This document shows, piece by piece, positions 1,116 to 64,000 of a stretch of 64,000 nt of DNA. The notes below the pieces were generated by a model that worked only from the letters and a program-made list of their open reading frames with translations, was not told the DNA's origin and made no database searches. Numbering within the stretch: the first letter of the stretch is position 1; the number at the start of each line of letters is the position of its first letter. This DNA comes from Patescibacteria group bacterium (GTDB lineage: Bacteria; Patescibacteriota; Kazan-3B-28), in the NCBI GenBank assembly GCA_041649135.1, contig JBAZNQ010000002.1:41238-105237 (forward strand), in the 5' to 3' direction. A program made the position numbers and the translations under genes.

Positions 1116-1162
1116 AATAAAGATTGTTATACCTCAAGTTTTATTAGTTAAAAAGTCTAATT

Positions 1163-3172: not shown

Positions 3173-3180
3173 CTAAATTT

Positions 3181-3396: not shown

Positions 3397-3403
3397 TTAA
3401 GGT

Positions 3404-45393: not shown

Positions 45394-45467
45394 GCGGGTA
45401 TAGTTTAATGGTAGAATATCTCTTTTCCAAAGAGAATATACGGGTTCGATTCCCGTTACCCGCTCCA
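45394..45467 (+). tRNA. tRNA-Gly (anticodon UCC), CCA encoded
   Basis: Manual fold: acceptor GCGGGTA/TACCCGC, D-loop AATGGTAG, anticodon stem TCTCT/AGAGA with loop TTTCCAA (U33, anticodon TCC, A37), T-arm ACGGG-TTCGATT-CCCGT, discriminator T, then CCA. Confidence 0.85.
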
Positions 45468-46967
45468 GTCTGAACACAAGGCGCGCTCCGCGAGGAGCGC
45501 GTAAGGCGGAATCCAGTCCCAGAGCACTTTCCGAGAATTCAGAATCAGGTTCGAGCCAACCTCCGCGACAAAGTCGCGTAGTTCCAAGAGATCACCACCC
45601 GCAGCCGGGAGATTGCTCTCCCTGACTGCGTTAATCAGCTCCCGAAGAGGTTCGAGCCAGTACATCACCCCCTGACGGGCGATCTTGCCGAATTGGGTCT
45701 CAAGAGCTATCTTCGCATTCACCAACTTTCGCTTGCGGGCGGCATACTCCGCCCGATCAATTTCTCCATCTACATGCAAGTCATTCAATCTGCGCAGCTT
45801 CGCTGCGATCCCGGCAATTTCAATTTCAAGCTTGAGCGCTGGCGCATTCTCATTGGTTACGGCTTCAGCTTCCCAGTCGTCTAGCTGGCGGAGCATCGGG
45901 AAAACCCACTCCTCCGATTCTGGTAAGGCGATAGTCTTAAGCCGTTCCCACATCCTTGCTAATAAATCCTCTTCGCGCATAAACGGCTGGGAACATTTTA
46001 AAGTCCCGCCTTTTTTGGTGCAGCGATAGTAGCGCCAGACATGGTGGTTGCCGTTCTGCTGCGTCCTGACGTGTGTCTCGGCGGTAATCGAAGCTCCGCA
46101 TTCCCCACAGCGTATCAGCCCTAAGAATGGAAACTCTCTCTTGTAATGCGCTTGGGCTCTTCCTCGCTGAGCAAATACACGTTGCACCTTGTCCCAAAGT
46201 GCTTTGCTTACAACCGGTTCATGGCAACCCCTGTAAAGCTCGCCTTTCCACAAAATCGCCCCGTAGTAGAACGGATCAACCAGTATGCCCGACATGCTGG
46301 CTTTAGGGATCAAGGTCTCGTAGTAGCCCTTAAGCCCGTGTCCGTACATTACTTTCGCTAAGGCAAGCATTGAGTACTGGCCGGTGGCGTACAGCTCAAA
46401 CATCCGCTTGATTAACGGAAATCTGACAGGATCAGGAATAATCTCATGTGTTTTAGGATGATTGAGGTAGCCTAGTTTCGCTTTGCCGGGGTAGATGCCC
46501 TTCGCTAACTTAGATGCTAGACCACGGTGGACTAGCTCGCTCAGGTTATCAGTGTAGCGCTTGCTTTCGGCGAAAAAGAACGCCAGCATGAACTTGTCAG
46601 TACTCGTATTTTTGAAGGTAGAAGTAGCAGTCACAATCTGGTGCAATTGACCGGAATCGAGAAGCTCAATGATCCGCGCTCCATCCATAGCATTGCGGGC
46701 GATTCGTGAAGCATCATAAGCTAGCAGCGCGTTGGCTTTGCCCTGGCTGATGGAAGCAAGAACAGCATCAAACTGTGGCCTTCCTGGTTTCCTCGCACTC
46801 ATCGATTCCTCATACTGCTCTTCAAGACGCATTTGAAGGCTGCTAGCAGCTTTCAAAGCCCATTCGCGCTGGTCCGGGATGCTTTGTACTTGTCGCTCGT
46901 CGCTTTCAGTAGATTTACGGTAGTAAGCGACATATCTCAATTTGGTGTGCTGTAGTTTATTGCTCAT
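45456..46967 (-). CDS. Large serine recombinase (integrase), C-terminus overlapping the tRNA-Gly 3' end
   Basis: Resolvase/invertase N-domain with the catalytic serine region YYRKSTESDERQVQSIPDQ, a recombinase domain and a zinc ribbon (CGECGASI...C..C). The stop codon lies inside the tRNA acceptor stem. Confidence 0.9.
   Translation of the reverse strand: MSNKLQHTKLRYVAYYRKSTESDERQVQSIPDQREWALKAASSLQMRLEEQYEESMSARKPGRPQFDAVLASISQGKANALLAYDASRIARNAMDGARIIELLDSGQLHQIVTATSTFKNTSTDKFMLAFFFAESKRYTDNLSELVHRGLASKLAKGIYPGKAKLGYLNHPKTHEIIPDPVRFPLIKRMFELYATGQYSMLALAKVMYGHGLKGYYETLIPKASMSGILVDPFYYGAILWKGELYRGCHEPVVSKALWDKVQRVFAQRGRAQAHYKREFPFLGLIRCGECGASITAETHVRTQQNGNHHVWRYYRCTKKGGTLKCSQPFMREEDLLARMWERLKTIALPESEEWVFPMLRQLDDWEAEAVTNENAPALKLEIEIAGIAAKLRRLNDLHVDGEIDRAEYAARKRKLVNAKIALETQFGKIARQGVMYWLEPLRELINAVRESNLPAAGGDLLELRDFVAEVGSNLILNSRKVLWDWIPPYALLAERALCSDWSG
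45461..45539. repeat. Left copy of a perfect 79-bp inverted repeat (pairs with 47884..47962)
   Basis: CGCTCCAGTCTGAACACAAGGCGCGCTCCGCGAGGAGCGCGTAAGGCGGAATCCAGTCCCAGAGCACTTTCCGAGAATT is the exact reverse complement of 47884..47962. Its first 7 nt are the tRNA-Gly 3' end. Confidence 0.85.
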
Positions 46968-46969
46968 GG

Positions 46970-47830
46970 TTAACTCGGATTACTTGATGTACGATTTGCT
47001 GACTGACCACTTCGCGAAGTGGACACTTCCCATTTACCACCTTGAGCAACCACGCGGATACGACCGTCTCCACGGGTGGTAAGTACTCTACGGAATGTTC
47101 CGTCTTCGAGCTTTACACCGCGAGCGTGATCGCGGTACGGCGCGCGCTTGGTGAGTTGCCGTCCTTTGGCTTGCTCCTTGTCCGAGATCACGATGAGCTT
47201 AGGCGATAAGTACTGGAACGCTTCTTCGAGATAGCCGGTCGGCCTGCCGTGGTGTGAAGCTACCAGTAGGTTGGTCTCACGCAGCCAGTACTGGAACGCC
47301 TTGTTCTGTATGTGCAATCGCCAGCCACGAGCATTCAGGTCGCCAGGCAGACAGACGGTGAAGCCGTCCTCAGTGATAAACGAAACGAGCGACAGGTCGT
47401 TCACATCGCGAACACTGCCAAGCGGGAGATAGAACTGGTGTAACTCCATCGTCCTGAATTGGCGCGATGCTTCCATCGGCTGAAGCTCGGCGATGGTCTT
47501 GCTCTGCGACAAGTACGCTTTCTGCGCCTTGCTTAGCGTGTCCTTCAACTCGGACAATGTCTTCATAAACAACTGCGGGTGCTGCCAGACATGAACCGGC
47601 TGAAGCTTTTCAAGCACATTCGGCAAGTCAGCCAAGTGGTCTTGGTCTGGGTGGGTTAGTATCAGGTGGTGAAGTCTCCGGCGAGAACCGAAGCCCTGCT
47701 TAGCCAGCCCATCCGACGGCCGCCAGCCGGTCGTTGTGTTGTATCCGCAGTCTACTAGAACGGCTTCATTCTGCGCACTCAAGATGAGGACGCAGTCGCC
47801 ATGCTCAACATCGTAAATGCGGATTTCCAT
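46970..47830 (-). CDS. MBL-fold metallo-hydrolase
   Basis: HxHxDH motif (LTHPDQDHLADL) with additional His/Asp ligands; co-directional and tightly linked with the serine recombinase. Confidence 0.7.
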   Translation of the reverse strand: MEIRIYDVEHGDCVLILSAQNEAVLVDCGYNTTTGWRPSDGLAKQGFGSRRRLHHLILTHPDQDHLADLPNVLEKLQPVHVWQHPQLFMKTLSELKDTLSKAQKAYLSQSKTIAELQPMEASRQFRTMELHQFYLPLGSVRDVNDLSLVSFITEDGFTVCLPGDLNARGWRLHIQNKAFQYWLRETNLLVASHHGRPTGYLEEAFQYLSPKLIVISDKEQAKGRQLTKRAPYRDHARGVKLEDGTFRRVLTTRGDGRIRVVAQGGKWEVSTSRSGQSANRTSSNPS

Positions 47831-47883
47831 AACTCACACATTATCCGCCGGACACAAGGGCGGCGCAATCATTCCCTTCGCTC

Positions 47884-47962
47884 AATTCTCGGAAAGTGCT
47901 CTGGGACTGGATTCCGCCTTACGCGCTCCTCGCGGAGCGCGCCTTGTGTTCAGACTGGAGCG
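47884..47962. repeat. Right copy of the perfect 79-bp inverted repeat
   Basis: Exact reverse complement of 45461..45539 (checked base by base). Confidence 0.85.
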
Positions 47963-48254
47963 ATCTGCTCTCCAGGCTCCGAACTTACTTCGAGCATAAC
48001 ACATCGGAGAGGTAGGGATTCGAACTACCCCTATTTAAGCCCCTATGTACCGGTAAAAAGGGGTAACTCATAACGTCAACCCGCTTCCAGTCTAGGTTTC
48101 TCCTACATCGGAGATGTAGCTCTTGTAGCTGACACCGCCCCTGCCGCCGCTCGGAGAGCTGCGGGCGGGTCGGCGCATTCATATTCGACTGTGCGCGGGA
48201 ATTCAACATACTCAATAACAGGAACCAAAACACCTTCATCCGCATGATGAAAAC

Positions 48255-48290
48255 GGGCCGGAGAAGCGCGCTCCTCCGGCCGATGACGAT
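48255..48290 (-). terminator. Putative terminator of the minus-strand ZnR-membrane/GNAT/small-peptide operon
   Basis: Near-palindrome CCGGAGAAGCGCGCTCCTCCGG, followed on the minus strand by CCCGTTTTCAT. Confidence 0.4.
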
Positions 48291-48309
48291 GAGACACAAT
48301 CGCACTGCG

Positions 48310-48498
48310 CTAGAAGTGCCCGGACTCCTTCAACTGGCTCTCGCCGGTCTCAGTGTCGATCTCGTAGACCGTGTGGTAGGGCATTCCCAGCGCTGAGCTG
48401 TCGTGCCGTACTTCCACCGTGCCGCTACCCGTATTTGTCACGGTATCGCCAGCACTACTCGCGCTACCGTAGTCGCCTCCGGAGCTGCCGCCTGACAT
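48310..48498 (-). CDS. Small Gly/Ser-rich protein (62 aa), translationally coupled to the upstream GNAT gene
   Basis: Strong SD GGAGGTGA 6 nt before the ATG. MSGGSSGGDYGSASSAGDTVTNTGSGTVEVRHDSSALGMPYHTVYEIDTETGESQLKESGHF has no known motif. Confidence 0.4.
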   Translation of the reverse strand: MSGGSSGGDYGSASSAGDTVTNTGSGTVEVRHDSSALGMPYHTVYEIDTETGESQLKESGHF

Positions 48499-48504
48499 TC
48501 GCTT

Positions 48505-49116
48505 TCACCTCCCTTCCCGCAGATTGCTGTGAATGCTCGCTGCCGCCAGCTCGGGCCGGGCAGTGGTGTCGAGTGACCGTTGCGTTTCGTCGAACTGCTC
48601 CCGGCTGACGGCATAGAGCAGCAGGTCGTGGTAGCCGCCCCGCCAGTACAGGTGCTCGCGCAGCACCGCTTCCGGACGGATACCCGCCGCCTGCAAGGTG
48701 GCGTTGGATTCTTGGTTGAAGCCATATACCTCGGCATATAGCTTGCGCAGGGGGTAGTTATCGAAAAGCCAAGCCGCGAAGCTCCGGGCGGCCCAGCTGC
48801 CCAGGCCACGCCGGCGGTTGGCCGCTTCGATGAACACCGCCAGGTACGCCCAGCCATGCAGTGAGTTGTAGTTGTAGGAGTAGACCGTGCCCACGGCTTT
48901 GCCTTCCGCACGCACCATGAAGCGGACGTGAGTGGACGCCTCGGTTTCCTGGAACTCCCGTGCGAACTGCTCGGGATTGCGCGGCGCGCGACGGGGGTAC
49001 CAAAGCGATAACGTTGCCAGATCGTTGCGCCAAGCATGCAGCACTGGCCGGTCGGCTTCACACATCGGACACAGCTCCGCTGGCGTGGGGCTGTTAGGTT
49101 GGGGGCTGCTACTCAT
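48505..49116 (-). CDS. GNAT-family N-acetyltransferase (RimJ/RimL-like)
   Basis: Acetyl-CoA-binding motif RRRGLGSWAARSF within a GNAT fold of ~200 aa. Confidence 0.85.
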   Translation of the reverse strand: MSSSPQPNSPTPAELCPMCEADRPVLHAWRNDLATLSLWYPRRAPRNPEQFAREFQETEASTHVRFMVRAEGKAVGTVYSYNYNSLHGWAYLAVFIEAANRRRGLGSWAARSFAAWLFDNYPLRKLYAEVYGFNQESNATLQAAGIRPEAVLREHLYWRGGYHDLLLYAVSREQFDETQRSLDTTARPELAAASIHSNLREGR

Positions 49117-49623
49117 TTAGTTCAGCTCCCGCAGACGCTTGATGTCCATGATGATGTTGATGGGCAGGATGATGAACGCGAACGGCGCGACGAGTACTAT
49201 GCCGCAGATGAAGATGATGATCCAGTTGTTGACTGTGGTGAAGTACATCAGGCCGGTGATATCCGACAGCTTGTCCATCAGCTTGCGGAAGTTGACGAAT
49301 GACCAGATGATGGTTGGAATGACCAGCAGGCTGATGAAGGCCGCTCCGTGCGGCGGCTCTCCGGTGCTGGCACTGGCGACGGCCACTAGGGCGATGATGC
49401 CGATGAGTAACGTCCCCAGCACGCTGCCACTAATGACCAGCTGGCGGATGATCGCCCCGCGCTCCGTCGCCAGCGCGTCCTGGTATTCACCGGCCATGGT
49501 GGTATAGCAGTGTTCGCAGATCGGCTGGCCGAAACGCTCGCTGCACTCGCGGCATAGCCCGCGTCCGCAGCCTTGGCTGCACATACCAACAGCCCGCTCC
49601 AGCGAATGCTTGTAGCAGTTCAT
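49117..49623 (-). CDS. Zinc-ribbon membrane protein (hypothetical)
   Basis: N-terminal Cys cluster (CSQGCGRGLCRECSERFGQPICEHC) followed by 3-4 TM helices. First gene of a three-gene minus-strand operon. Confidence 0.5.
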   Translation of the reverse strand: MNCYKHSLERAVGMCSQGCGRGLCRECSERFGQPICEHCYTTMAGEYQDALATERGAIIRQLVISGSVLGTLLIGIIALVAVASASTGEPPHGAAFISLLVIPTIIWSFVNFRKLMDKLSDITGLMYFTTVNNWIIIFICGIVLVAPFAFIILPINIIMDIKRLRELN

Positions 49624-49719
49624 GTAGCACTCCCTAGTTGTTGCTGCGCATATTATAACATGCGTTTAGCAATATGTGCTGTACTTACTGCATGCTCCGT
49701 TTCCTGATACCTATTAACT

Positions 49720-49962
49720 GTGGAGCTGGCTCAGCAAGTAGGGATGAACATCCGCGTTCTACGGGTACGGCGCAGGCTGTCGCAAGAGAAGCTGGCCGAG
49801 CGGATGGGCATCGAGCGGCAGCAGGTCAGCGACATCGAGTTGGGCAAGCGCAATCTGACACTGCTGACCGTTACGCGAATCTGCCAAGCCTTAAACTGCC
49901 AGCCATCTGAGTTGTTCGCGGACACGTCGATAGAGCTAAGTCAGGGAAAGCGTAGTCGATAG
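49720..49962 (+). CDS. XRE-family helix-turn-helix transcriptional regulator
   Basis: LRVRRRLSQEKLAERMGIERQQVSDIELGKRNLTLLTVTRICQALNCQPSELF is a Cro/C1-type HTH; divergent from the GNAT operon. Confidence 0.8.
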   Translation: MELAQQVGMNIRVLRVRRRLSQEKLAERMGIERQQVSDIELGKRNLTLLTVTRICQALNCQPSELFADTSIELSQGKRSR

Positions 49963-49985
49963 ATTTCGGCAGTAGCCGTATATCA

Positions 49986-51653
49986 GTGGGGGATCTTGTG
50001 TTTGAGCATTCACCTTCTGTGTGGGATGTAGTAAGTGCTATCGCCAGCAGCCTGATGCTGTGGGCTTTGGTGATTCTGCTGCTGCTGGCCGTGCGCCTTT
50101 GGTTGACCAAGTTCATCTACTACATGCAGGACTACACCACCGGCTTTCTCAAAGTACGTGGCTTGGTAGCTGCCGCACAGCGTGAAGACGCATGGAAACT
50201 CAGCGAGCATCGTCCCGTTGGCAAGTATGCCGACTGCTCACTGACGCTCGGACTAACAGAGAGCAGCGGCTACTCACAGCCATTTGTGGTTCCCGGCGAT
50301 TACCGCACTACTCATATGTATGTGGTGGGCGCTTCCGGCTCCGGCAAGTCGTCGTTGCTGAAGAACCTGATCCATCAGGACATCCGCAGCGGGATGGGAC
50401 TGTGTGTGATCGACCCGCACGGCGATCTGATCTATGACACGGTGGCGCAGCTGGGCAAGCGAGCGGAGCAAACCGTGATGCTGGACTTGGCGGATACGGA
50501 ACACATGCTCGCGTACAATCCGCTTGAGCGCAGGCAAGGTGTGCTGGTTGCCGAGCAGGTGGCGAAGCTGATACTGGCGTTTCAGCGGATTTGGTCTGAC
50601 AGCTGGGGGTCTAGGATGGAAGACATCCTGCGCCATACGCTGACGCTGCTTGTCGAGCAGGGATACACGCTGGCGGAGTTCGAGCGCGTGCTGACCGACG
50701 CGGACTTCCGCGAGATGTTGGTTGAAGCATCGATGATTGACCAAACGCGCGAGTACTTCCTTGGACGCTACAACACATGGAACAGCAAGGAACGCCAGCT
50801 CTTCAGCGAGTCCTCTCTTAACAAGGTCTCGGCGTTCATGGCCGATCCTCGCATTGGCGTGAGACTCGGCCAGACTAAGTCCGGCTTCAACCTAAAGGAC
50901 ATCATGGACACCGGTGGGATACTGCTGGCGAATCTCGCGAAAGGCAAGCTGGCGGGTAACGCAGACCTATTCGGCGCGCTGCTGATGGCTGACATTGAAA
51001 TGAGCTTCCTTTCCCGCCCGCCAAACCAGCGCAGTCCGTTCGCGCTGTATGTCGATGAGTTTCAGAACATCGCAACGGAGAGTTTCGAGACGGTGCTGGC
51101 GGAAGCGCGCAAGTTTGGCCTGTGCTTAACGATGGCGCACCAATCCCTGAAGCAGGTTGATGACACGCTGGCTTCGCTCATCCTCGGCAACGCGCAGACG
51201 CAGGTGTACTTCCGTGTTGGCAGGCAAGATGCGGAGCGGTTGGCGAAAGAGTCTGCCAACATTATCGCGCAGCTGATCGAGCAAGAGGAAGAGCCGCAAT
51301 TGATGCAGGAACGGGAGCGGAAGTTCTCCATGTCCGAGTTATGGGAAGCGGCTTTTCACCAGCTTGTCCGGCTTGAGCCGCGCCGGGCTTATGTGATGGT
51401 CAAGGGCGCGATGGAGCATCCGGAGCTGGTTCGCACGATAGATAATCCTGTGGTCAAGAGCGTGAAGTTCCCTTACAGCGCAGCCTACGCCAAGCTGGAA
51501 GTGTTTGAGGCGGCGCTGAAACAGCGGGCGAAAGACATCATGCATGCAGTGGATGAGTACGTGAAGCAGAGGCAAGCGAAACAAGGCAAGCCAATTGAAG
51601 CCAGTCCTGGCGCGGATGAGGAAGTACCGGCAGCATTGGACTTCTTGAAGTAG
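49986..51653 (+). CDS. Type IV coupling-protein-like ATPase (TraD/TraG/VirD4 family; TraM-recognition/DUF87-like)
   Basis: N-terminal TM helix, Walker A VVGASGSGKSSLL, Walker B ALYVDEFQNI and a C-terminal TraD/TraG-like region (KFGLCLTMAHQSLKQV). Confidence 0.7.
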   Translation: MGDLVFEHSPSVWDVVSAIASSLMLWALVILLLLAVRLWLTKFIYYMQDYTTGFLKVRGLVAAAQREDAWKLSEHRPVGKYADCSLTLGLTESSGYSQPFVVPGDYRTTHMYVVGASGSGKSSLLKNLIHQDIRSGMGLCVIDPHGDLIYDTVAQLGKRAEQTVMLDLADTEHMLAYNPLERRQGVLVAEQVAKLILAFQRIWSDSWGSRMEDILRHTLTLLVEQGYTLAEFERVLTDADFREMLVEASMIDQTREYFLGRYNTWNSKERQLFSESSLNKVSAFMADPRIGVRLGQTKSGFNLKDIMDTGGILLANLAKGKLAGNADLFGALLMADIEMSFLSRPPNQRSPFALYVDEFQNIATESFETVLAEARKFGLCLTMAHQSLKQVDDTLASLILGNAQTQVYFRVGRQDAERLAKESANIIAQLIEQEEEPQLMQERERKFSMSELWEAAFHQLVRLEPRRAYVMVKGAMEHPELVRTIDNPVVKSVKFPYSAAYAKLEVFEAALKQRAKDIMHAVDEYVKQRQAKQGKPIEASPGADEEVPAALDFLK

Positions 51654-51686
51654 GTTAGAAGCTGTACAGTAAAAGCAGCTTTATGT

Positions 51687-52004
51687 ATGAACCGCAAGCA
51701 GTTCAACCAACACATCAATAGCACATTGAAGGCTCTCCGCGAAGTAGAAAGCCGTGATTGGTATAGCCTACTGCTTGCCTCTGCCAACCCGATTGATGAA
51801 GTTGGCGAAGCGGTGAAGCTGATTAAGGTTGCTGCGGGATACAAGCAGTTCGTGCGGGAATGCCCAGATACCGGTAGTGAGACAAGACGCGAAGCCTACC
51901 TGCTTCTGCGCGCCGCTTACGATGGCGGAGTTTTCCCGCCGCGCCAGCATGTGAGCAAGGCGCAGTTTAAACGCCTGCTCGACATGCACCTATCGCGGCT
52001 CTAG
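51687..52004 (+). CDS. Hypothetical protein
   Basis: 105 aa, high GC, co-directional with the island genes. Confidence 0.4.
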   Translation: MNRKQFNQHINSTLKALREVESRDWYSLLLASANPIDEVGEAVKLIKVAAGYKQFVRECPDTGSETRREAYLLLRAAYDGGVFPPRQHVSKAQFKRLLDMHLSRL

Positions 52005-52320
52005 ATGAGTTCGCGCTCTGCCAGAACTCAACCTAATTCACCGTGAAAGGCGAAAGGTGCAAGAGCGCCCAAAGACGAGTCCTACTAGCGTAAGTAGGAC
52101 AGGGTTTGAACATGACGCCCCCACGTCCATCTTGTGTTTCGGCCGCTAGACCACCTGAGACGGCTACACGCGGTAGCTTCTAGACGGGTGGGCATATTCC
52201 CTTGCTCCCCGCGCCCGGCAGAGCGTAGCTCAAGCATACGCTCTGTTGACAGTTTCGCGAAAACGCTAGATCCAAAACAGACGGCTTAAGTTTCTATCCA
52301 CATGATAGACTAGCAGCGCT

Positions 52321-53247
52321 GTGAATGTATACAAAGCAAAGGCTGGGCGCTTCCTGTTGTATCTCGATATTCTAGGGTTCAAGCAACTAATCCGGCACCG
52401 CAGCCCTGAAGAGGTCTACGCCACAGTAGATCAGATGTTGAGAGAGACCGCTGAGCGAGAACGCGGTATACCGGATTTCACAACGTTATATTTCTCAGAC
52501 ACGATTGTCTTTTTTCAAAAGTCGGTCGGATACGGATCTTGGGCCTTTGGAGACATTTATTCATTAACTGCAATGATCTGGTCAGCACTGGCAGCCAGAA
52601 AAATACCGACTCGCGGAGCAATCGCCTTTGGAGACTTCCATGCCGAGCCAGATTCCCGTGGGCAGCACACGGTATTCTTCGGTGAGGCGTTGATAGAAGC
52701 TTACGAAACTGAAAAACTGGAAAACTGGATCGGAGTAACTCTATGTCCAAGCGCTGTGGAAATCGTTAATTACGTAGAGCCTAATCGACTTACGCAAATG
52801 CTAAATGAGCCAGGCGCTTTCGATTACGTGGATCAGATTGAGAAAGAGCACGCAGCCTATACTCCGGCTGTCTTTGTCGAGTATTTTAAGAAGGCACAGC
52901 CAACAGTACTGCATAGAACTGCTTGCCGTCGAGTGCTCCTCAATCCACTGTACTTTCTGCATCAAACTTGGTTCGCAGATGTCTACGATGAGGGAGTAGT
53001 GAGTTACCCCCTTCATCATGATAGTGTGCATTTCGCTCATGATATTCTCTCCCTGAAGTTCATCCTACAAACCGCAGAGGAACCAGATGGAGCTGATCCA
53101 GAGCGGAACAAAGTCCTCGCCAAGTATAGAAATACAGCAGCGCTCCTCCGCCAGATGTTTCCGTCAGAGTGTATCGAGTGGGCCTTGAAGCTCTATGAAA
53201 CTTTCCCGGACCAGGCAGACGAAGGGTGGGGCGACTGGAAGAAATGA
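52321..53247 (+). CDS. Class III nucleotidyl cyclase-like (AC/GC/GGDEF palm) domain protein with unknown C-terminal domain
   Basis: LYLDILGF matches the FADIVGFT metal-binding motif; FSDTIVFF lies 43 residues later, matching the second metal Asp (GDxxxxF); RGAIAFGDF matches the RIGIHxG arginine. GTG start. The assignment rests on motifs only. Confidence 0.45.
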   Translation: MNVYKAKAGRFLLYLDILGFKQLIRHRSPEEVYATVDQMLRETAERERGIPDFTTLYFSDTIVFFQKSVGYGSWAFGDIYSLTAMIWSALAARKIPTRGAIAFGDFHAEPDSRGQHTVFFGEALIEAYETEKLENWIGVTLCPSAVEIVNYVEPNRLTQMLNEPGAFDYVDQIEKEHAAYTPAVFVEYFKKAQPTVLHRTACRRVLLNPLYFLHQTWFADVYDEGVVSYPLHHDSVHFAHDILSLKFILQTAEEPDGADPERNKVLAKYRNTAALLRQMFPSECIEWALKLYETFPDQADEGWGDWKK

Positions 53248-53416
53248 TTAGCCTACTAATGACTGTGGACAATTTCACGGAAACGGTAGAACTACAATAG
53301 AAAGCACCGGTTTCTATCCACAACGAGCATACTAGGTAGGCAGAATCCTCTTCGCTCATTAACAACGTTAACTTCAACTCCCCGATGCGCGCAATACCGC
53401 CGGAGGCGGCACTGCG

Positions 53417-53761
53417 TTGCGCATCAAGGACATCAAGAGTCTTGTTTGGCTCTATCGCTGGTACAACGGACGTTCCCAGCGTCTTCAAGAAACCCATCAA
53501 GTTCATCTTGCCGCTGTTTCGCAACTAGTCGTTGATGAGCTTGGCGGCACACCGCAGGGCAGCACGGAAGTCTGCCTGTGCGGATTTTCTCTTATCGTAA
53601 AGGCCAGCCCTGACGGGCTGGCGATTGAGTCCATTACCCCGCCTACATTTATCAACGGCGTTCAGCTGATGTTGTTTGACGCCGATTTGGATGATGACTA
53701 CCTGGCGGGCCAGTACTGTGAATCCACTGAAGAGGTGCAACGTGAAGTTGCTTACCGATGA
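53417..53761 (+). CDS. Hypothetical protein
   Basis: 114 aa ORF in the island; no motif recognised. Confidence 0.35.
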   Translation: MRIKDIKSLVWLYRWYNGRSQRLQETHQVHLAAVSQLVVDELGGTPQGSTEVCLCGFSLIVKASPDGLAIESITPPTFINGVQLMLFDADLDDDYLAGQYCESTEEVQREVAYR

Positions 53762-54095
53762 GCTTCTGAAGAAGCTAGAAGCTCAAGATCCCTATGGTCC
53801 GACTGGACCAGGACGGGAACTCACCAAAGAAGAAGAGCAGGTCGTCTGCAAGTTCTTCACGCCGGATGCTAACTGGACGTGGTACGCGGTTTCCGCGTCC
53901 CGCGATCCTGAAACCGGCGATGTGCAGTTCTTCGGTTTGGTTGACGGTCTCGAACTGGAACTCGGCTACTTCTGGTTATCCGAGTTGACTAAGGTTCGGG
54001 GCATACTCGGCTTGCCGGTGGAGCGCGATCTCTACTGGCAGCCGCAGCCGCTCTTCAAGCTGATGGAGGAACTGGAACATGCAGCAGTCAGCTGA
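53742..54095 (+). CDS. DUF2958-family protein (common on conjugative elements)
   Basis: KLLTDELLKKLE...PDANWTWYAVSASRDPETGDVQFFGLVDGLELELGYFWLSELTKVRGILGLPVERDLYW matches the DUF2958 consensus. GTG start with SD GAGGTG 5 nt upstream. Confidence 0.6.
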   Translation: MKLLTDELLKKLEAQDPYGPTGPGRELTKEEEQVVCKFFTPDANWTWYAVSASRDPETGDVQFFGLVDGLELELGYFWLSELTKVRGILGLPVERDLYWQPQPLFKLMEELEHAAVS

Positions 54096-54588
54096 AGGAG
54101 CCGTAAGAATCGCGATCCTGAGTGAACCGAGTGCCTTTGGTCTCTCCCTTGCTGACGTCAATCCGATGCTCCTATACCAGCTCCGCAAAGACGATCCAGA
54201 ATACAGCGAGCACGGAACGACGGAGCTGTGGGAGCTCTGCTTTGATGCGGTGAATGAGTTGCTGCACGCTAAGGTCATCGAAGTATTTGCTGGCGCGAAC
54301 CGGCGCAAGGATGAGCTGGTGCAGCAAGTAGCTGTGGCTGAAACTCAGCCGAAAGAGCAACCTGCACCGGCAAAGCCTAACGGCAAGGCCAAGAGTAGCG
54401 GCAAAGAAGCTGAAGCCAGCAATGGTAATAGCAACCGTGGCGGTAAGCTGACGGTAAAGCAGCTGCGCTATCTCGGTTTCCTGCATCGGAAAGTCGGCGA
54501 AGAGCCGGACTACATTGTCATCTCAGCCCTGACGCAGAGTCAGGCCACAATGCGTATCAAGGAGTTGGAGCAACGCGTTAATGGGTGA
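54079..54588 (+). CDS. Hypothetical protein with Lys/Ala/Pro-rich linker
   Basis: 169 aa; central low-complexity segment QPKEQPAPAKPNGKAKSSGKEAEASNGNSN. Confidence 0.4.
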   Translation: MQQSAEGAVRIAILSEPSAFGLSLADVNPMLLYQLRKDDPEYSEHGTTELWELCFDAVNELLHAKVIEVFAGANRRKDELVQQVAVAETQPKEQPAPAKPNGKAKSSGKEAEASNGNSNRGGKLTVKQLRYLGFLHRKVGEEPDYIVISALTQSQATMRIKELEQRVNG

Positions 54589-54998
54589 TGCGCCCTCTGC
54601 CATTCCCGCAGACGGGTTAGATTTCCCAAGGGATTTCTGCAAGCTAACCGGCACGTCGTTCCCGCGACGGGCTGGCTTGGCTTGGGAACGACTAATAAAT
54701 AACAATAGCGTGATTGGGTTACTTGTGGTATGCTTTACTCGTGGATAACTTGTTGATAATCCACACAATTGCGTCCCGACGAGATTCTGCTGCGCCTGAC
54801 GACGCTCGTATGTGTTATACTTTGTACCCAGCTCAGCGGATGAATGAGCTGGGGGAGAATGGCGGAAAAGCTGAATACATGGGGCGTAGCTCATGCGAGT
54901 CTGGTGGAATCTCGCGGATGCTACAAAGGCACCTTGGCAAAGGCAAAAAGCACCCCCGCTCGTTAAAACAAGCGGGGGCCATTGCACGGTAGGTTACC

Positions 54999-55100
54999 CT
55001 ACCGTTTCCGTTTATTCAGTCCTTGCCATACCAGAATGATCTGGCAGGCTAGACCGATAACGGCAACGATGAGTCTTATCCACTCAAAGTGGCCGTTCAT
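54999..55100 (-). CDS. Candidate 31-aa hydrophobic peptide (type I toxin-like); unannotated short ORF
   Basis: SD GGAGGT 7 nt upstream of the ATG; MNGHFEWIRLIVAVIGLACQIILVWQGLNKRKR has a TM helix and a basic tail. A hairpin ACGGTAGG-ttac-CCTACCGT lies immediately downstream. Confidence 0.3.
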   Translation of the reverse strand: MNGHFEWIRLIVAVIGLACQIILVWQGLNKRKR

Positions 55101-55375
55101 GACGGTACCTCCTTTTGTGGCTCTACCACGAGGCCCACAGGGGGTACCGTCCCCATTTATTTGTTTTAAAAAACCCGCTCGTGCGGGTTGTTCTGTTTAT
55201 CTACTCGGGGGAAACTGCAAGTGTTTGAGCTTCACTAGCTTAAGCCACCGTTCAGCTTCACGTATACTCATACAGCCTCCACCGTTGAAAGTATACCACA
55301 CTTTTGGTCGAGGGCAAGATCGGGGGAACTGGTTCATAGCTAAAACCCGCGCTGAATAGCATCTCGCTTCCCGGG

Positions 55376-56377
55376 ATGGATCAGCATGGCTTATGTACAA
55401 TGGTACTGAGACCAAACCATATGAGTCCACGTAAACCAAAGACAGACCAGAAACGGCTACCGCGAACAAAGCGAGCCAAGCACCCGCCTGCTTTTCGGAT
55501 TACCAAGCGCGATGTAGAGCTGGTGCGCGCTATCCTGAATTACCGCTTCCTCTACACTAAGCACGTGTTCTGGCTGTTGCCGAAAGCCAGCCAGCAGAAC
55601 CTGACCGTGCGGTTGCGGCACCTATACCATCATGGCTACTTGAATCGCGTTTTGCTTCCTGACTCCAGTACCAATGAGCAGCTGGTCTACGCGCCGACCG
55701 AAAAGGGCGCGGTGATGGTTGCGGATGCGGACGGTATCAGCCGAGATGAAGTTGAATGGCACCGCTACATGAACATCGTCTCGCCCTCGCATATCCGCCA
55801 CCTGCTCTCAATCAACGACGTGCTGGTGTCTTATGAGATTGCGCTAGGGCAAGCTAAGGCTCAAGGCAAGATAGCGGATTACAAGGTAGTGCGCGGGGAG
55901 CCGCGCAAACACAAGCTACCGGTGCTGCTTAGAGACAAGGACGGCAAACGGCGTGAGGTTGCCAATGTGCCGGACGCTTATCTTGCGGTAGTGTTTGACA
56001 GCCACAATTACGGCGTGTTCTTTGTGGAAGTGGACAGGGCGACGATGGGGTCGTCGCGCTGGGCAGAGAAGATCGAGGTCTATCGCGAGTACCCGCGCAC
56101 CCAGCACTTCAAGGACAAGTTTAAGGCGCAATGGTGTATAGTGTTAACCGTCGCGCCGAGCGAAAAGCGGGTCATGTCGCTAGCGGAGAAAACCGCCGGC
56201 ATGGGGGGTCAGCGGGGATTCTGGTATGCGCTCGCTGACCAGCTAACACCGGATACCGCTTGCGGACCCGTTTGGATCAGAGCGTCGGACTTATTTGGTG
56301 TTCGTAATGAAAGGGTGGTCAAGCTGAGCGAAATCAGCAGGGCTATCAGATCGGGATTGCCCGATGCGCTAAGGTAG
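55376..56377 (+). CDS. Replication-relaxation family protein (plasmid/ICE replication initiator-like, winged helix)
   Basis: ITKRDVELVRAILNYRFLYTKHVFWLL...QNLTVRLRHLYHHGYLNRV matches the N-terminal wHTH of the replication-relaxation family. The true start may be an internal Met (MSPRKPK). Confidence 0.6.
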   Translation: MDQHGLCTMVLRPNHMSPRKPKTDQKRLPRTKRAKHPPAFRITKRDVELVRAILNYRFLYTKHVFWLLPKASQQNLTVRLRHLYHHGYLNRVLLPDSSTNEQLVYAPTEKGAVMVADADGISRDEVEWHRYMNIVSPSHIRHLLSINDVLVSYEIALGQAKAQGKIADYKVVRGEPRKHKLPVLLRDKDGKRREVANVPDAYLAVVFDSHNYGVFFVEVDRATMGSSRWAEKIEVYREYPRTQHFKDKFKAQWCIVLTVAPSEKRVMSLAEKTAGMGGQRGFWYALADQLTPDTACGPVWIRASDLFGVRNERVVKLSEISRAIRSGLPDALR

Positions 56378-56395
56378 CGCAACGCGGGAGGCAGT

Positions 56396-56737
56396 ATGGC
56401 TGAGCCATTGGAGCACCTGAAAGGTGCCAGCGATAGCAAGCGTGGTTTCTGGAACTGGGCTGTGTACTGGTGGGGAGAGCTCGTCAATTCGCGCTTCTTC
56501 CTCTACCTCTACGACTACACCTGCATGCGCATTCCCTTGACCAAGCGCTACCGAGAGCTGACGCTGGATCAGCTGACATGCCGGTTCTGTGGGAATAGCA
56601 TTGACCTGCTGGGCGCTTGGCGCTGCGAGTGCGGCTACTCCCGCCCTGGCAACTACTTCGGGCGCTGCCCGAAGTGCCTGAACTACCCGCGCTACATTGA
56701 CTGCCCAGCTTGCAGGTTTACTATGGACGTGAGGTGA
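56396..56737 (+). CDS. Cys-rich zinc-finger protein (hypothetical)
   Basis: CRFCG...CECG...CPKC...CPACRF gives four CxxC pairs. Confidence 0.4.
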   Translation: MAEPLEHLKGASDSKRGFWNWAVYWWGELVNSRFFLYLYDYTCMRIPLTKRYRELTLDQLTCRFCGNSIDLLGAWRCECGYSRPGNYFGRCPKCLNYPRYIDCPACRFTMDVR

Positions 56738-56744
56738 ATTTGTA

Positions 56745-59015
56745 ATGATTACTCAGATATCCATAAGCAAGACGGCCATTTATGGCGATACGCCAGTTGT
56801 GTTAGACGAATTGCTTCAATTCAACTATGTTTTCGGTGCTAATGGTTCAGGCAAAACGACAGTAAGTCGTTTTCTCAATGACACTTTAAATCCAGAGTAT
56901 TCAAATTGCTCAGTTACGTATCAAGGAATTTCTCGACCTAATATTCTCGTCTACAACAAGGATTTTGTTGACGACAAGCTAAATGTATCAACAGCGATAC
57001 CAGGCATTTTTACTTTCGCTGATGAAAATGAACCAGCAAGGGCGAAAATCAAAGAACTAGCTGATACTTGCGCTGGCTATACTAAGACCCTTGAAGGACT
57101 CAACATCACCTTGAATGGAGGAGATGGCAAACCGGGTGAATTAGGCAAATTGCAAGTACTAGACGCTGACTTTCGCGGAAGATGTTGGCGACAAAAGCTC
57201 AAATACGACGCTGACTTCAAGAGCGCCTTCTCCGGATTTCGCCGGAACTCTGCCGATTTTATGAAGAAGGTTCTCCTTGAATACGCTGAGAATAAAGCCA
57301 CATTACTAAACATAGATACTCTGAAGAGCAAAGCAGGCTCCATCTTCACCGATACCCAGACAAGTGAGCCATCTTTTGAAATTATCGACTTCAGCAGAAT
57401 CCTCACCTATGAATCGAGCCTCCTGTTAAAGAAAGTGGTGGTTGGCAAACAGGATGTTGATATCGCCAGCATGATTAAGAAGTTGGGAAACAGCGATTGG
57501 GTGAAGACAGGGCGCCCATACTACGACATCAACGACATGTACTGTCCATTCTGTCAGCAACTTACTACAGAGCAGTTCGCCAAGGAACTGAATGAGTATT
57601 TCGATTTATCATTTGAATCTGATATGAAAGATTTACAGCAACTATACCAAGACTATGATGCTGAATCACAAGCAATCGAAGACAAGCTTAACACTATAGC
57701 AAGCCGTTCCTCGGTTTTCGTTGATATGAATCAACTAATAGCCGAAAGAGACACTCTCTTCGCTTTACTAAAAGCGAATACAGCCATTATCGAACAGAAA
57801 GTGAAAGAGCCAAGTCGGATATTTAGTCTTCAACCGCTAAATGAAGTAGTTAGTAGAATTAGCAATTTGTTGAATACAGCCAATGACAAGATTGACGAAC
57901 ACAACAAGCTAGTAGCGAACATTGCCGCTGAGCGTAAACTATTAACTGCCCAAGTATGGAGATTCATTATTGATTCAGAGTTGAAGGACGAGATTGAGAA
58001 GTACTTAGATGAGAAGAACAAAATTGAGAAAGCAATAACCGGCATCAACGCTAGAATTACCAAAACAAGTACGGAGCTGGAGAATGCCCAGAATGAAAGC
58101 AGTGCGCTTAGTAGGCAGATGACTAGCATTGAACCTACGGTACGACGCATTAATGATATTCTGCGTTCGTTCGGTTTCCTGAGTTTTCACTTAAAGGTTG
58201 CCGAAGATAGAACTTCTTACAAGATTGTACGCAGCAACGGAAGTGATGCTCGGCAGACCCTGAGCGAGGGTGAGCGCGCTTTTATTTCATTTCTCTATTT
58301 TTTCAGTATGATTTCCGGAAGCGTAGATGCGGACGGTTTAGCCGGAGACAGAATTGTCGTTTTTGATGATCCAGTATCTAGTTTAGATAGCGACGTTTTG
58401 TTTATTGTTAGCTCACTCATCAAGCAGACTATTAAACACTCGCGCGAGAAGATTAGCAGAGTCAGACAGATTTTCGTTTTTACACATAATGTATTTTTCC
58501 ATCGTGAGGTTACATTTGATATTAATAGAAGAGGACCAAAAAGGAATGATGAAACATTCTGGGTATTGCGGAAGATTAATAATAGGCCTCTTGCTAAATC
58601 GCATGAGGAGAATCCTATCACTACTTCCTATGAGCTGCTTTGGAGTCAGTTAAGAGACGATATGTCTAGCTCCTCAACGTTAGCAAATGTAATGCGACGG
58701 ATTCTGGAGCATTACTTCAAACTGCTTGGAGGAATGAAAGACGAGGACATATTTCAAAGGTTTGAAGGTGACGAGCAGCTAATATGCCGTTCGTTATTTT
58801 CATGGATGAACTATGGCTCGCATTGCTCGGATGACGATCTATATGTTGCAGTGGACGAGTCTATGGTGGAGAAGTACAAATCAGTATTCAAGAAGATATT
58901 CGTTGACACTGGACATGAGAAACATTTCGAGATGATGATGAAGGGGTTTGAATTTCCCGAAAAGGAAGCGCCATTAGAAGCTCCAGAGCCAGTCGAGGAA
59001 GCTGTTGTGGGTTAG
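56745..59015 (+). CDS. RloC-like AAA_13 ATPase (restriction-linked; putative wobble-nucleotide-excising anticodon nuclease)
   Basis: N-terminal Walker A FGANGSGKTT, long coiled coil containing a CxxC zinc-hook-like motif (YCPFCQQ), Walker B/D-loop VVFDDPVSSLDSD and a ~200-aa C-terminal domain. Located directly upstream of a Type III R-M pair. Confidence 0.6.
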   Translation: MITQISISKTAIYGDTPVVLDELLQFNYVFGANGSGKTTVSRFLNDTLNPEYSNCSVTYQGISRPNILVYNKDFVDDKLNVSTAIPGIFTFADENEPARAKIKELADTCAGYTKTLEGLNITLNGGDGKPGELGKLQVLDADFRGRCWRQKLKYDADFKSAFSGFRRNSADFMKKVLLEYAENKATLLNIDTLKSKAGSIFTDTQTSEPSFEIIDFSRILTYESSLLLKKVVVGKQDVDIASMIKKLGNSDWVKTGRPYYDINDMYCPFCQQLTTEQFAKELNEYFDLSFESDMKDLQQLYQDYDAESQAIEDKLNTIASRSSVFVDMNQLIAERDTLFALLKANTAIIEQKVKEPSRIFSLQPLNEVVSRISNLLNTANDKIDEHNKLVANIAAERKLLTAQVWRFIIDSELKDEIEKYLDEKNKIEKAITGINARITKTSTELENAQNESSALSRQMTSIEPTVRRINDILRSFGFLSFHLKVAEDRTSYKIVRSNGSDARQTLSEGERAFISFLYFFSMISGSVDADGLAGDRIVVFDDPVSSLDSDVLFIVSSLIKQTIKHSREKISRVRQIFVFTHNVFFHREVTFDINRRGPKRNDETFWVLRKINNRPLAKSHEENPITTSYELLWSQLRDDMSSSSTLANVMRRILEHYFKLLGGMKDEDIFQRFEGDEQLICRSLFSWMNYGSHCSDDDLYVAVDESMVEKYKSVFKKIFVDTGHEKHFEMMMKGFEFPEKEAPLEAPEPVEEAVVG

Positions 59016-59083
59016 GTGGCACGGTGTCGGAGAGCGTTAATCGTAATTGGCAGTCGCCTGTTCGTCCGGCATAATGGAGTCGT

Positions 59084-60958: not shown

Positions 60959-60968
60959 GGCTAGCGCT

Positions 60969-63725: not shown

Positions 63726-63773
63726 CGTCTCTAGCCACAAGTATGTAAGAAGGAGGGCTTACTTACAATAGAA

Positions 63774-64000
63774 ATGATTAAGTATATTAAGAAAGGACTA
63801 ACATCATTTTGGCGTCTTGTGCCAGGACACATGCAATGGTGGTGTCTTTGGTTAGGACATAGCAAGTATAATGTTGGAGTTTCCGGCATAGTGTCTGACT
63901 CAAACGGAAAGGTACTGCTAATCAACCATGTTTTTAGAAGTCGGTTTTCTTGGGGATTCCCATCGGGTTGGATGAAGTCTGGCGAAACATTTGAGGATAC
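63774..64000 (+). CDS. NUDIX hydrolase, 3'-partial (runs off the window end)
   Basis: ATG at 63774; MIKYIKKGL...VGVSGIVSDSNGKVLLINHV...SWGFPSGWMKSGETFEDT begins a Nudix fold (GX5EX7REUXEEXGU box just starting). AT-rich, like the core genome. Confidence 0.5.
   Translation, partial: MIKYIKKGLTSFWRLVPGHMQWWCLWLGHSKYNVGVSGIVSDSNGKVLLINHVFRSRFSWGFPSGWMKSGETFED

Follow-up and report, generated by a model that had tools for sequence, protein, structure and literature searches.

A divergent acetyltransferase gene and an orphan acidic partner as probable cargo in a variable slot of a tRNA-Gly-associated mobilizable island

The window analysed here, i.e., the whole 64,000-nucleotide stretch of DNA from a MAG labelled Patescibacteria, contains three leftward ORFs, and the ORF list bears out the tight same-strand packing that an initial annotation had reported for them. 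The first gene of this operon is ZnTM (49117-49623, minus strand), encoding a 168-aa membrane zinc-finger protein, and it is followed by GNAT (48505-49116, minus strand), encoding a 203-aa acetyltransferase, and by a small ORF (48310-48498, minus strand) for a 62-aa acidic protein. The ZnTM stop codon indeed abuts the GNAT start codon with zero spacing (TAA at 49119-49117, ATG at 49116-49114), and the claimed overlap of the GNAT stop with a Shine-Dalgarno sequence is equally present, with the TGA lying inside GGGAGGTGA and the small ORF ATG following 6 bases on. The small ORF start is thus coupled to the GNAT stop via GGGAGGTGA-N6-ATG, the two ORFs being 7 nt apart. A scan for terminators placed a strong intrinsic terminator (48281-48256, minus strand; 11-bp stem with 8 G-C pairs, 4-nt loop, and CGTTTTCATC as tail) 29 nt past the small ORF stop, where it closes the three-gene unit.

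At the other end of the unit, the leftward promoter is predicted from an extended –10 element (TGTTATAAT; 49660-49652, minus strand) alone, and a scan with the canonical –35/–10 promoter model gave no match. This element is located inside an imperfect 18-bp palindrome, CGCATGTTATAATATGCG (49647-49664), that emerged from an inverted-repeat search and the sequence itself and constitutes a putative XRE operator. Opposite the leftward unit, and again as initially described, lies a divergent gene for an 80-aa XRE/Cro-type HTH protein (49720-49962, plus strand; HTH_3 match at 3e-14, 53.2 bits vs. a cutoff of 23). On sequence grounds, ZnTM, GNAT, and the 62-aa ORF are genuine and probably co-transcribed.

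The wider context of these genes is an island with a tRNA-Gly(TCC) gene as its left border (45394-45467, plus strand; called by ARAGORN, and with 72 bits by Rfam), to the right of which the GC content climbs from ~46% to 53-59%. Next to the tRNA gene are a large serine recombinase (45456-46967, minus strand; Resolvase, Recombinase, and Zn_ribbon_recom domains) and an MBL-fold protein (MBL; 46970-47830, minus strand; Lactamase_B, and PADLOC PDC-M48B at 2.1e-43) that is encoded downstream of the three-gene unit; we found no literature on PDC-M48. On the far side of the unit, the gene for a Type IV coupling protein (TraD/VirD4-like; 49986-51653, plus strand; TrwB_AAD_bind at 4e-10, TraG-D_C at 6.4e-9) begins 23 nt downstream of XRE, and further island genes include relaxase, AAA_13, methylase, and Res genes, PDC-S06, and a Type III R-M system. 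The genes up to position 64000 include no recognised VirB4-type ATPase, and the right end of the element lies beyond the window. The combination of a recombinase, a relaxase, a coupling protein, an adjoining tRNA gene, and atypical composition marks the island as an integrative mobilizable element. It resembles other tRNA-sited elements of this kind in each of these features, GC shift included, and in its variable defence/TA cargo, but differs from them in that its recombinase is of the large serine type and, together with MBL, is bracketed by 82-nt inverted repeats. The locus is an example of a mobilizable island that is tRNA-associated and laden with defence genes, in a MAG whose Patescibacteria label comes from the NCBI entry of an identical protein; our impression is that few such islands have been described in this group. 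Within 44-52 kb, Rfam at E<=1 reported the tRNA-Gly only, and a T-arm-like stretch at ~48005-48030 was rejected as a tRNA, being recognised by neither ARAGORN nor Rfam. A genetic code with UGA as a sense codon was likewise rejected (TGA is the stop codon in 7 of 36 host genes, and table 11 gives long ORFs).

The N-terminal part of the ZnTM protein is a B-box-like zinc finger with eight Cys/His ligands, and three long membrane helices make up the rest. A phmmer search of 1.84 billion representatives returned 146 matches at E<1e-3 (19 of which at E<1e-10), and the family thus comprises at least 146 cluster representatives. In an alignment of 25 sequences, the ligands C2, H5, C14, C18, C23, C26, C35, and C38 were invariant, as was P153, and eight conserved Cys/His ligands within a domain of ~40 residues are what characterizes a B-box-type finger. 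The AF2 model built with an alignment (pLDDT 93; helices at 36-84, 93-122, and 130-166) was used in place of the single-sequence model, which reached a pLDDT of 66 and rendered the zinc finger as helices. For the three-helix module, with its conserved WGF and P153, no solved or viral structural neighbour was found.

The zf-B_box, ANCHR-like_BBOX, and DUF2180 models of Pfam were each weakly matched by 2 of the 25 family members, and plasmid sequences matching ZnTM in a tblastn search carry DUF2180 and B-box zinc finger annotations. ZnTM resembles DUF2180/zf-B_box-like membrane proteins in its eight-ligand C-x2-H ... C-x2-C pattern, but differs from them in that the protein encoded in the window falls below every Pfam model. 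PADLOC, PHROGs, and NCBIfam returned nothing specific for it, and a word-indexed homologue search found only identical or 95-97% copies. The B-box zinc-finger membrane proteins to which ZnTM belongs are widely scattered and form an uncharacterised family with a confident predicted structure.

The second gene encodes a protein matching Pfam Acetyltransf_3 over residues 15-146 (4.6e-12; 47.3 bits vs. a cutoff of 25.4), although an alternative start at M18, yielding 186 aa, was favoured by two gene callers. The acetyl-CoA loop (motif A, R/Q-x-x-G-x-G/A) can be read from the translation as R101-R-R-G104-L-G106, and a 95%-identical variant of the locus (L001) differs within this loop by an R103-to-H change only, with a dN/dS of 0.12 for GNAT as a whole. 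Among PDB chains, the best sequence matches were diamine/spermidine acetyltransferases (SpeG/PaiA; 35 bits) and RimJ/RimL-family chains, and all 40 matches at E<=10 (phmmer) belonged to SpeG/PaiA, RimJ/RimL, PseH, PPT-AT, or AAC(6') proteins. In this comparison with the known GNAT toxins, as proposed by the initial annotation, no AtaT, TacT, KacT, or ItaT chain appeared among the matches from all PDB chains, and GNAT grouped with the SpeG/RimJ/RimL/PseH clade instead. Its scores nevertheless stayed far under the NCBIfam cutoffs, with 34 vs. 93.1 bits for PseH of the pseudaminic acid pathway (TIGR03585), 28.2 vs. 218 bits for the SpeG equivalog PRK15130 (spermidine N1-acetyltransferase), and 19.3 vs. 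184 bits for the RimL equivalog PRK10151 (L7/L12 Ser N-acetyltransferase). The possibility that GNAT is simply a housekeeping enzyme was therefore only partly upheld, in that the clade agrees, whereas no housekeeping equivalog cutoff was reached and the gene resides on a mobile island.

GNAT shares Acetyltransf_3 and the R-x-x-G-x-G acetyl-CoA loop with its best sequence relatives, the ribosomal-protein N-alpha-acetyltransferases RimJ/RimL/RimI and the polyamine acetyltransferases SpeG/PaiA, but differs from them in its low scores (19-35 bits vs. curated cutoffs of 184-218), in having Gln in place of the aligned Tyr of its SpeG-type best match, and in being encoded on a GC-atypical mobile island, of which a diverged relative (L013; see below) lacks it. 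A word-indexed search of 5.8 billion sequences found a 95% copy as the sole homologue, PADLOC and NCBIfam gave nothing specific, and PHROGs gave a generic acetyltransferase match only. The relatives that tblastn retrieved from plasmids and phages were all SpeG-like or YokL, with an identity of 23-29%, which is too distant for synteny inference. GNAT is, by its predicted domain and loop, intact, and it belongs to the SpeG/RimJ/RimL/PseH clade as a highly divergent member.

The 62-aa protein has a pI of 4.4 and a Gly/Ser-rich, low-complexity N-terminal half that begins with MSGGSSGG. It was initially noted to have no motif, and the databases agree, with no match in Pfam (E<=0.1), NCBIfam, PADLOC, or PHROGs; neither was a DNA-binding or known antitoxin fold detected in it. 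Its homologues are limited to a 97% copy in the word-indexed search, and tblastn at E<=10 gave no match in plasmids and phages. Such a short, half low-complexity ORF with a single 97% copy as its sole homologue could be suspected of being no gene at all, which would reduce the operon to ZnTM and GNAT and turn the remainder into a long 3' UTR. However, a strong Shine-Dalgarno sequence precedes the ORF at 6 nt spacing, gene calls in independent assemblies include it, and it is the ORF, not GNAT, that the terminator follows. Moreover, its GC3 is 0.76 in frame vs. 0.54 for GC1 and GC2, a periodicity identical to that of its neighbours, with the same GC3 as GNAT. Compared with L001, it shows five synonymous and two non-synonymous changes (dN/dS of 0.11) and zero indels, vs. 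two indel events in the 176 nt of non-coding DNA downstream; when seven random substitutions were simulated, the probability of at most two amino-acid changes and no stop was 0.03. Because of the in-frame GC3, the dN/dS, and the lack of indels, we regard the small ORF as a genuine gene, and consider the non-gene reading very improbable. The ORF is, to judge from these substitution patterns, protein-coding and under purifying selection. Its conservation, on which the initial annotation had made its proposal depend, was confirmed in one respect and not in another, as the ORF is conserved under purifying selection in L001, the only diverged copy, but absent from L013.

Related loci were searched for with an 8-sequence subset of the ZnTM alignment, since the 25-sequence alignment was too diverse. 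L013, a 2.5-kb contig and the only diverged relative of the backbone that was recovered, displays the gene order coupling protein-XRE<>ZnTM-39-aa ORF-MBL, without either GNAT or the small ORF. Identity between the window and L013 amounts to 73% for MBL, 58% for the coupling protein, 39% for XRE (L009/L013), and 32% for ZnTM, and the XRE gene of L009/L013 occupies the same position as in the window. In ~12 distinct loci sampled around ZnTM homologues, no GNAT or small-ORF match was present nearby. Plasmid searches with MBL gave only relatives of <=35% identity that do not share the backbone, and scans of IMG/VR with the ZnTM alignment, GNAT, the 62-aa ORF, or MBL revealed no relatives.

These comparisons bear on the proposal of a dedicated three-component TA/abortive-infection module, in which a membrane protein, a GNAT toxin, and a small antitoxin would stand under their own divergent XRE regulator. 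The tight packing between one promoter and one terminator is in line with it, as are the defence genes on the island and the statistical linkage of XRE and GNAT genes in genomes (PMC2701414). However, the four genes do not recur together, with L013 keeping XRE, ZnTM, the coupling protein, and MBL in the absence of GNAT and the small ORF, and with zero GNAT neighbours in the ~12 ZnTM-homologue loci. Furthermore, even a search at E<=10 brought up no solved AtaT/TacT/KacT/ItaT chain for GNAT, and PADLOC is silent for all three proteins. The XRE gene heads the coupling-protein operon, so that XRE is not dedicated to the triad; the order XRE-coupling protein<>ZnTM also occurs in L013, and the control of a dedicated module by XRE, as initially put forward, is not supported. 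We thus deem a dedicated module improbable, and the triad is, as far as gene order tells, a one-off combination instead of a conserved module.

Our preferred explanation, which we hold to be probable, is that of a composite leftward operon in a variable slot of the tRNA-Gly-associated integrative mobilizable island, made up of backbone plus cargo; this grading concerns the architecture, apart from any biochemical role. Judged by the gene order in L013, the conserved backbone comprises ZnTM, XRE, the coupling protein, and MBL. GNAT and the 62-aa ORF were seen in this lineage only, and would therefore have been inserted as a pair of accessory genes between ZnTM and MBL, with the reservation that an insertion in the window and a deletion in L013 would look the same from the single relative L013. 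The abutting ZnTM stop and GNAT start suggest long-standing coupling and speak against a recent sloppy insertion. If the composite-operon reading is true, this is ordinary biology, i.e., a variable cargo slot occupied by the gene for a divergent acetyltransferase and its orphan partner. It would also illustrate how a backbone gene and newly gained cargo can end up tightly packed in one operon, and that triads seen in a single genome need a synteny check before being called modules.

Under the composite-operon explanation, XRE would bind the palindrome over the –10 element, and would repress both the leftward operon and its own transfer operon. In L013, a different palindrome, TGGTATATATACCA, is present at the position equivalent to CGCATGTTATAATATGCG. 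Production of ZnTM, GNAT, and the small protein would then depend on derepression of the island. GNAT would transfer an acetyl group from acetyl-CoA to an amino group, be it a protein or peptide N-terminus or a small amine, and the small acidic protein, whose translation is coupled to that of GNAT and whose Shine-Dalgarno sequence is the stronger one, would act as its stoichiometric partner.

Several roles can be envisaged for such a pair. GNAT might be a stand-alone detoxifying or resistance enzyme (for an antibiotic, polyamine, or amino-sugar) carried as cargo, with the small ORF as a hitch-hiker or chaperone-like accessory. Its nearest characterised relatives, all of them small-molecule acetyltransferases (SpeG/PaiA, PseH, ArsN1, AAC(6'), and phosphinothricin acetyltransferase), and the SpeG-like or YokL annotations of its phage and plasmid relatives point this way, and for GNATs linked to regulators, Makarova et al. 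saw a resistance function as the likelier one (PMC2701414). Nevertheless, we rate this option as unlikely, given that all such matches lie far under the curated cutoffs, and that it would explain neither the coupling over 7 nt nor why the small ORF is under equally strong purifying selection.

The two genes might alternatively form an enzyme-substrate pair, with GNAT N-alpha-acetylating the SGGSSGG N-terminus after removal of Met, or with the 62-aa product serving as a RiPP- or microcin-like precursor peptide. Enzymes of the RimJ/RimL type use Ser or Ala N-termini as acetylation substrates, and the small protein, translationally coupled to GNAT, has Met-Ser as its first residues within a flexible N-terminus of Gly/Ser character. 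Against this, no leader-type motif, protease, cyclase, MccB-like adenylyltransferase, or exporter occurs within +/-5 kb, the peptide has no relatives, and ZnTM belongs to no transporter family. The suggested comparison with MccE was likewise negative, since an MccB-type adenylyltransferase, a short precursor, and an exporter are all missing from the ORFs at 45.4-63.7 kb (Pfam). Such a pairing is therefore quite improbable.

Anti-defence cargo would be another conceivable function, in which GNAT inactivates an immune protein of the recipient, the acidic protein serves as a second inhibitor or DNA mimic, and both are expressed upon derepression or entry. AcrVA5, a GNAT anti-CRISPR that inactivates an immune protein, provides a precedent, and the genes adjoin the transfer genes across a shared divergent control region, with the small protein being acidic. 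However, neither protein resembles known anti-defence families, and the PHROGs match is to a generic acetyltransferase, making this function highly unlikely.

Finally, the small protein might be the labile neutraliser of a growth-inhibiting acetyltransferase, and the pair a cassette for addiction or abortive infection by which the island is kept in place; this is our preferred guess as to its role, albeit one of low probability. In favour of such a TA-like role are the pI of GNAT (7.8) vs. that of its partner (4.4), the 7-nt spacing, the low-complexity N-terminal half of the partner, and the defence-rich island. To our knowledge, no acetyltransferase of the SpeG/RimJ/RimL/PseH clade is a proven toxin, which counts against it. 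Like AtaT-AtaR, TacT-TacA, KacT-KacA, and ItaT-ItaR, the pair consists of a GNAT gene tightly coupled to a small gene on mobile DNA, with an acidic partner beside a near-neutral or basic enzyme. The toxins of those systems halt growth by acetylating aminoacyl-tRNA and are neutralised by their partners. An RHH/DUF1778 antitoxin gene is usually found upstream of the GNAT toxin gene in such systems (PMC9177977). No RHH/DUF1778 gene stands beside GNAT, which has ZnTM upstream and the 62-aa ORF downstream, in agreement with the initial judgement that this is no standard TA layout. The pair further differs from these systems in that its GNAT comes from the Acetyltransf_3 (SpeG/RimJ/RimL-like) clade, its partner is an unlikely DNA binder, and its control would be exerted by an XRE common to the island transfer operon.

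A separate regulator, a non-DNA-binding acidic antitoxin, and an enzyme toxin are also combined in the omega-epsilon-zeta TA system, to which the locus is similar in its separately encoded regulator and in a small acidic protein that might inhibit the enzyme directly. It differs from that system in gene order and in having no homologous component, and its regulator belongs to the island backbone, as the first gene of the coupling-protein operon. The more specific proposal that GNAT and the 62-aa protein constitute an undescribed two-gene TA or abortive-infection cassette, with a SpeG/RimJ/RimL-clade toxin and a partly disordered, non-DNA-binding acidic antitoxin that is tied to XRE through co-transcription with ZnTM, strikes us as decidedly unlikely. 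If GNAT and the small protein were truly a TA pair, GNAT toxins would extend past the DUF1778-linked clade. As a last observation, ZnTM, GNAT, and the 62-aa ORF have a single reading frame in common, and a still less likely variant, suggested by this shared frame alone, would be stop-codon read-through that yields a membrane-tethered acetyltransferase fusion.

As proposed in the initial annotation, the ORF list and the sequence place three genes in tight succession on the minus strand, i.e., those for a B-box-like zinc-finger membrane protein (ZnTM; 168 aa, 49117–49623), an acetyltransferase (GNAT; 203 aa, 48505–49116) and a small acidic protein (62 aa, 48310–48498), with a divergent HTH gene (XRE; 80 aa, plus strand, 49720–49962). 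The GNAT ATG indeed abuts the ZnTM stop TAA, and the GNAT stop TGA falls within the Shine-Dalgarno stretch of the small ORF (GGGAGGTGA), whose ATG follows six bases on. Two gene callers favored M18 as the GNAT start (186-aa form). A strong intrinsic terminator (11-bp stem with 8 G-C pairs; minus strand, 48281–48256) is located 29 nt past the small ORF stop, and no comparable terminator was found between the triad genes. Upstream of ZnTM, an exact extended –10 (TGTTATAAT; minus strand, 49660–49652) is enclosed by an imperfect palindrome (CGCATGTTATAATATGCG; 49647–49664), with AGGGAG-N6-ATG downstream at the ZnTM start. Since a generic –35/–10 scan found no promoter, this extended –10 is the sole basis of the promoter call. 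The three ORFs share one reading frame with single stops in between (TAA-ATG, then TGA-AAG-CGA-ATG), which would occur by chance in about 1 in 9 cases. Since 7 of 36 host genes stop at TGA, the shared frame was given no weight, and read-through fusions across these ORFs are speculative.

The small ORF is annotated as a gene in several assemblies, and its GC3 is 0.76 in its own frame vs. 0.54 for both GC1 and GC2 (GC3 of GNAT and ZnTM, 0.76 and 0.83, respectively). Compared with L001, a Logan contig that carries the single diverged copy of the locus (95% nucleotide identity), the small ORF displays five synonymous and two non-synonymous changes without indels, while GNAT displays 22 and 10, respectively, and the 176 nt downstream of the small ORF contain two indel events. 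By the Nei-Gojobori method, the small ORF has a dN/dS of 0.11 and GNAT one of 0.12, and in simulations seven random substitutions left at most two amino-acid changes and no stop in only 3%. The small ORF, whose conservation and translation had been in question, was accepted as coding on these sequence grounds, with the evidence for selection coming from one pairwise comparison (L001). Its product matches the earlier description of an acidic, motif-less peptide, having a pI of 4.4, an N-terminal half rich in Gly/Ser and no family match in Pfam, NCBIfam, PADLOC or PHROGs. A word-indexed homologue search returned only a 97% copy, tblastn against plasmids and phages (E ≤ 10) gave no match, and an IMG/VR scan revealed no relative, so that the protein is an orphan.

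Whether these genes form a dedicated module was examined in neighborhoods of ZnTM homologues, obtained by exact-protein look-ups as well as from GTDB genomes and JGI metagenomes. About 12 distinct loci were covered, belonging to Terriglobia, Armatimonadota, Cloacimonadota, Proteobacteria or unbinned contigs. Co-occurrence of the triad across genomes did not emerge, as a GNAT adjoined the ZnTM gene in none of these loci, and searching every locus by tblastn with the GNAT and the small protein of the window (E ≤ 0.01) gave no match. The decisive locus for the architecture is L013 (= L009), a diverged relative of the island on a 2.5-kb contig, with the order coupling protein, XRE, divergent ZnTM, an unrelated 39-aa ORF and an MBL-fold protein (MBL). 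Here, the window's backbone is kept (58, 39, 32 and 73% identity for coupling protein, XRE, ZnTM and MBL, respectively), while GNAT and the 62-aa ORF are missing. ZnTM and XRE are therefore backbone genes, with XRE heading the transfer operon, and GNAT and the small ORF, which fill the slot from ZnTM to MBL, are probably lineage-specific cargo. The operon anatomy given in the initial annotation holds, and its reading as a module finds only partial support. No other island lineage has the ZnTM-GNAT-small ORF combination, and the locus is rated as accessory cargo on a mobilizable island.

At the corresponding promoter site, L013 has a palindrome as well (TGGTATATATACCA). This is compatible with an operator specific to each XRE, through which the divergent promoters would be repressed. 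XRE would then repress both divergent operons, and derepression of the island would yield a leftward ZnTM-GNAT-small ORF transcript.

The region is a defense-rich integrative mobilizable island. To the right of tRNA-Gly(TCC) (plus strand, 45394–45467; ARAGORN and Rfam), the GC content rises from ca. 46% to 53–59%, and the gene order runs from a large serine recombinase via MBL, the triad and XRE to the coupling protein (23 nt past XRE), DUF2958, a Replic_Relax relaxase, AAA_13 and a Type III methylase and restriction enzyme. A GC-rich (53–59%) stretch with recombinase, coupling protein and relaxase (45394–64000) lies in a 46% GC Patescibacteria-labeled genome; an identical ZnTM protein carries a Patescibacteria-group MAG label at NCBI, and identical DNA is present in three other assemblies. 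Since no VirB4-type ATPase was seen up to the window end (64000), the island would depend on a secretion system supplied by a helper. According to a 2025 paper (PMC12102498), the T4SS of Patescibacteria is homologous to the conjugation machinery of monoderms. The AAA_13 ATPase, directly followed by the Type III methyltransferase/restriction enzyme (56745–63725), matches PADLOC candidate defense gene PDC-S06 (861 bits), has a GC content of 42% vs. 52–56% in its neighbors and shows a weak PrrC-like match at its C-terminus, a layout recalling an anticodon nuclease beside an R-M system. MBL (minus strand, 46970–47830) matches PDC-M48B (2e-43), and its neighbor, the recombinase, has no PADLOC match. 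MBL travels with the recombinase in this island family (73% identity in L013), raising the question of a defense or an integration role.

ZnTM itself has no Pfam match, but belongs to an undescribed yet widespread family: exhaustive phmmer against 1.84 billion representatives gave 146 matches at E < 1e-3 (19 at E < 1e-10), mostly full-length proteins of 155–200 aa, to which DUF2180 and B-box annotations are weakly linked. In a 25-sequence alignment, C2, H5, C14, C18, C23, C26, C35, C38 and P153 are invariant, which amounts to a B-box-like zinc finger with eight ligands, after which come three hydrophobic helices. The AF2 model built with this alignment has a pLDDT of 93 and a pTM of 0.75. Homologues often occur in accessory or mobile contexts, i.e., after an 883-aa ORF that is MobA/VirD2-like by eye (L008, Proteobacteria MAG, 1073–4489), upstream of a HicA toxin gene (L014, 2272–3194), or preceding 274–278-aa ORFs that are KilA-N-like by eye (L006 and L007, Armatimonadota and Cloacimonadota MAGs).

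GNAT matches Pfam Acetyltransf_3 (4.6e-12) and contains the acetyl-CoA loop R101-x-x-G104-x-G106. Its best NCBIfam matches all score far under cutoff (PseH 34 vs. 93, SpeG 28 vs. 218, RimL 19 vs. 184; also ArsN1a and AAC(6')), and phmmer against PDB sequences (E ≤ 10) returned only SpeG/PaiA, RimJ/RimL-family, PseH, phosphinothricin acetyltransferase and AAC(6') chains. Among 5.8 billion clusters, a word-indexed search recovered nothing but a 95% copy, and plasmid and phage relatives (23–29% identity) are annotated SpeG-like or YokL. GNAT is a new and very divergent addition to a known clade (SpeG/RimJ/RimL/PseH), with a score far under the cutoff for housekeeping RimL. In the comparison with AtaT, TacT and KacT suggested in the initial annotation, none of these chains, nor ItaT, appeared even at E ≤ 10. 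Classical GNAT/DUF1778 toxin-antitoxin membership was rejected because clade, partner domain and gene order all differed, upholding the initial view of a non-standard layout. Microcin-C-like and RiPP clusters were likewise rejected, since Pfam scans of neighboring ORFs revealed none of the defining enzymes.

By analogy with its clade, GNAT would acetylate an amino group. Given its tight coupling and stronger Shine-Dalgarno sequence, the small protein would be the partner of this enzyme. An acidic partner beside a near-neutral enzyme in a defense-island setting, typical of variable cargo, makes a TA-like addiction or abortive-infection cassette a tentative possibility; a new GNAT toxin that lies beyond the DUF1778-linked clade and is paired with an acidic antitoxin is unlikely. 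Since the closest characterized GNAT relatives work on small molecules, a resistance or detoxification enzyme beside an unrelated small gene is conceivable, if somewhat improbable. The Ser-Gly N-terminus of the small protein would suit RimL/RimJ-type N-alpha-acetylation, although an enzyme-substrate pair seems very unlikely. A GNAT anti-CRISPR exists as precedent for anti-defense cargo, but the sequences lend this no support and it is highly improbable.

Finally, an 82-nt inverted repeat (99% identical; 45461–45542 and 47881–47962) flanks the recombinase and MBL. Both arms start with CGCTCCA, i.e., the last 7 nt of tRNA-Gly, and the left one includes the coding sequence for the C-terminus of the recombinase. 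Because the DNA upstream of MBL in L013 encodes an inverted-orientation peptide 54% identical to recombinase residues 478–501, the repeat seems to be shared by the island family and not to stem from misassembly. It may delimit a recombinase-MBL cassette capable of inversion, or be the recombination site. On the minus strand, GGGGTAGTTCGAATCCCTACCTCTCC (ca. 48005–48030) resembles a tRNA T-arm and acceptor 3′ strand; it was not called by ARAGORN or Rfam and may be what is left of a former attachment site at a tRNA. In other assemblies, contigs terminate between 48010 and 48237. A 34-nt GC-rich stretch (48123–48156) is 82% identical to L013 1544–1576, a statistically marginal match given the very small search space (E = 0.005). 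Located directly past the ZnTM stop in L013 and past the small-ORF terminator in the window, it may correspond to the right-hand boundary of the inserted cargo.
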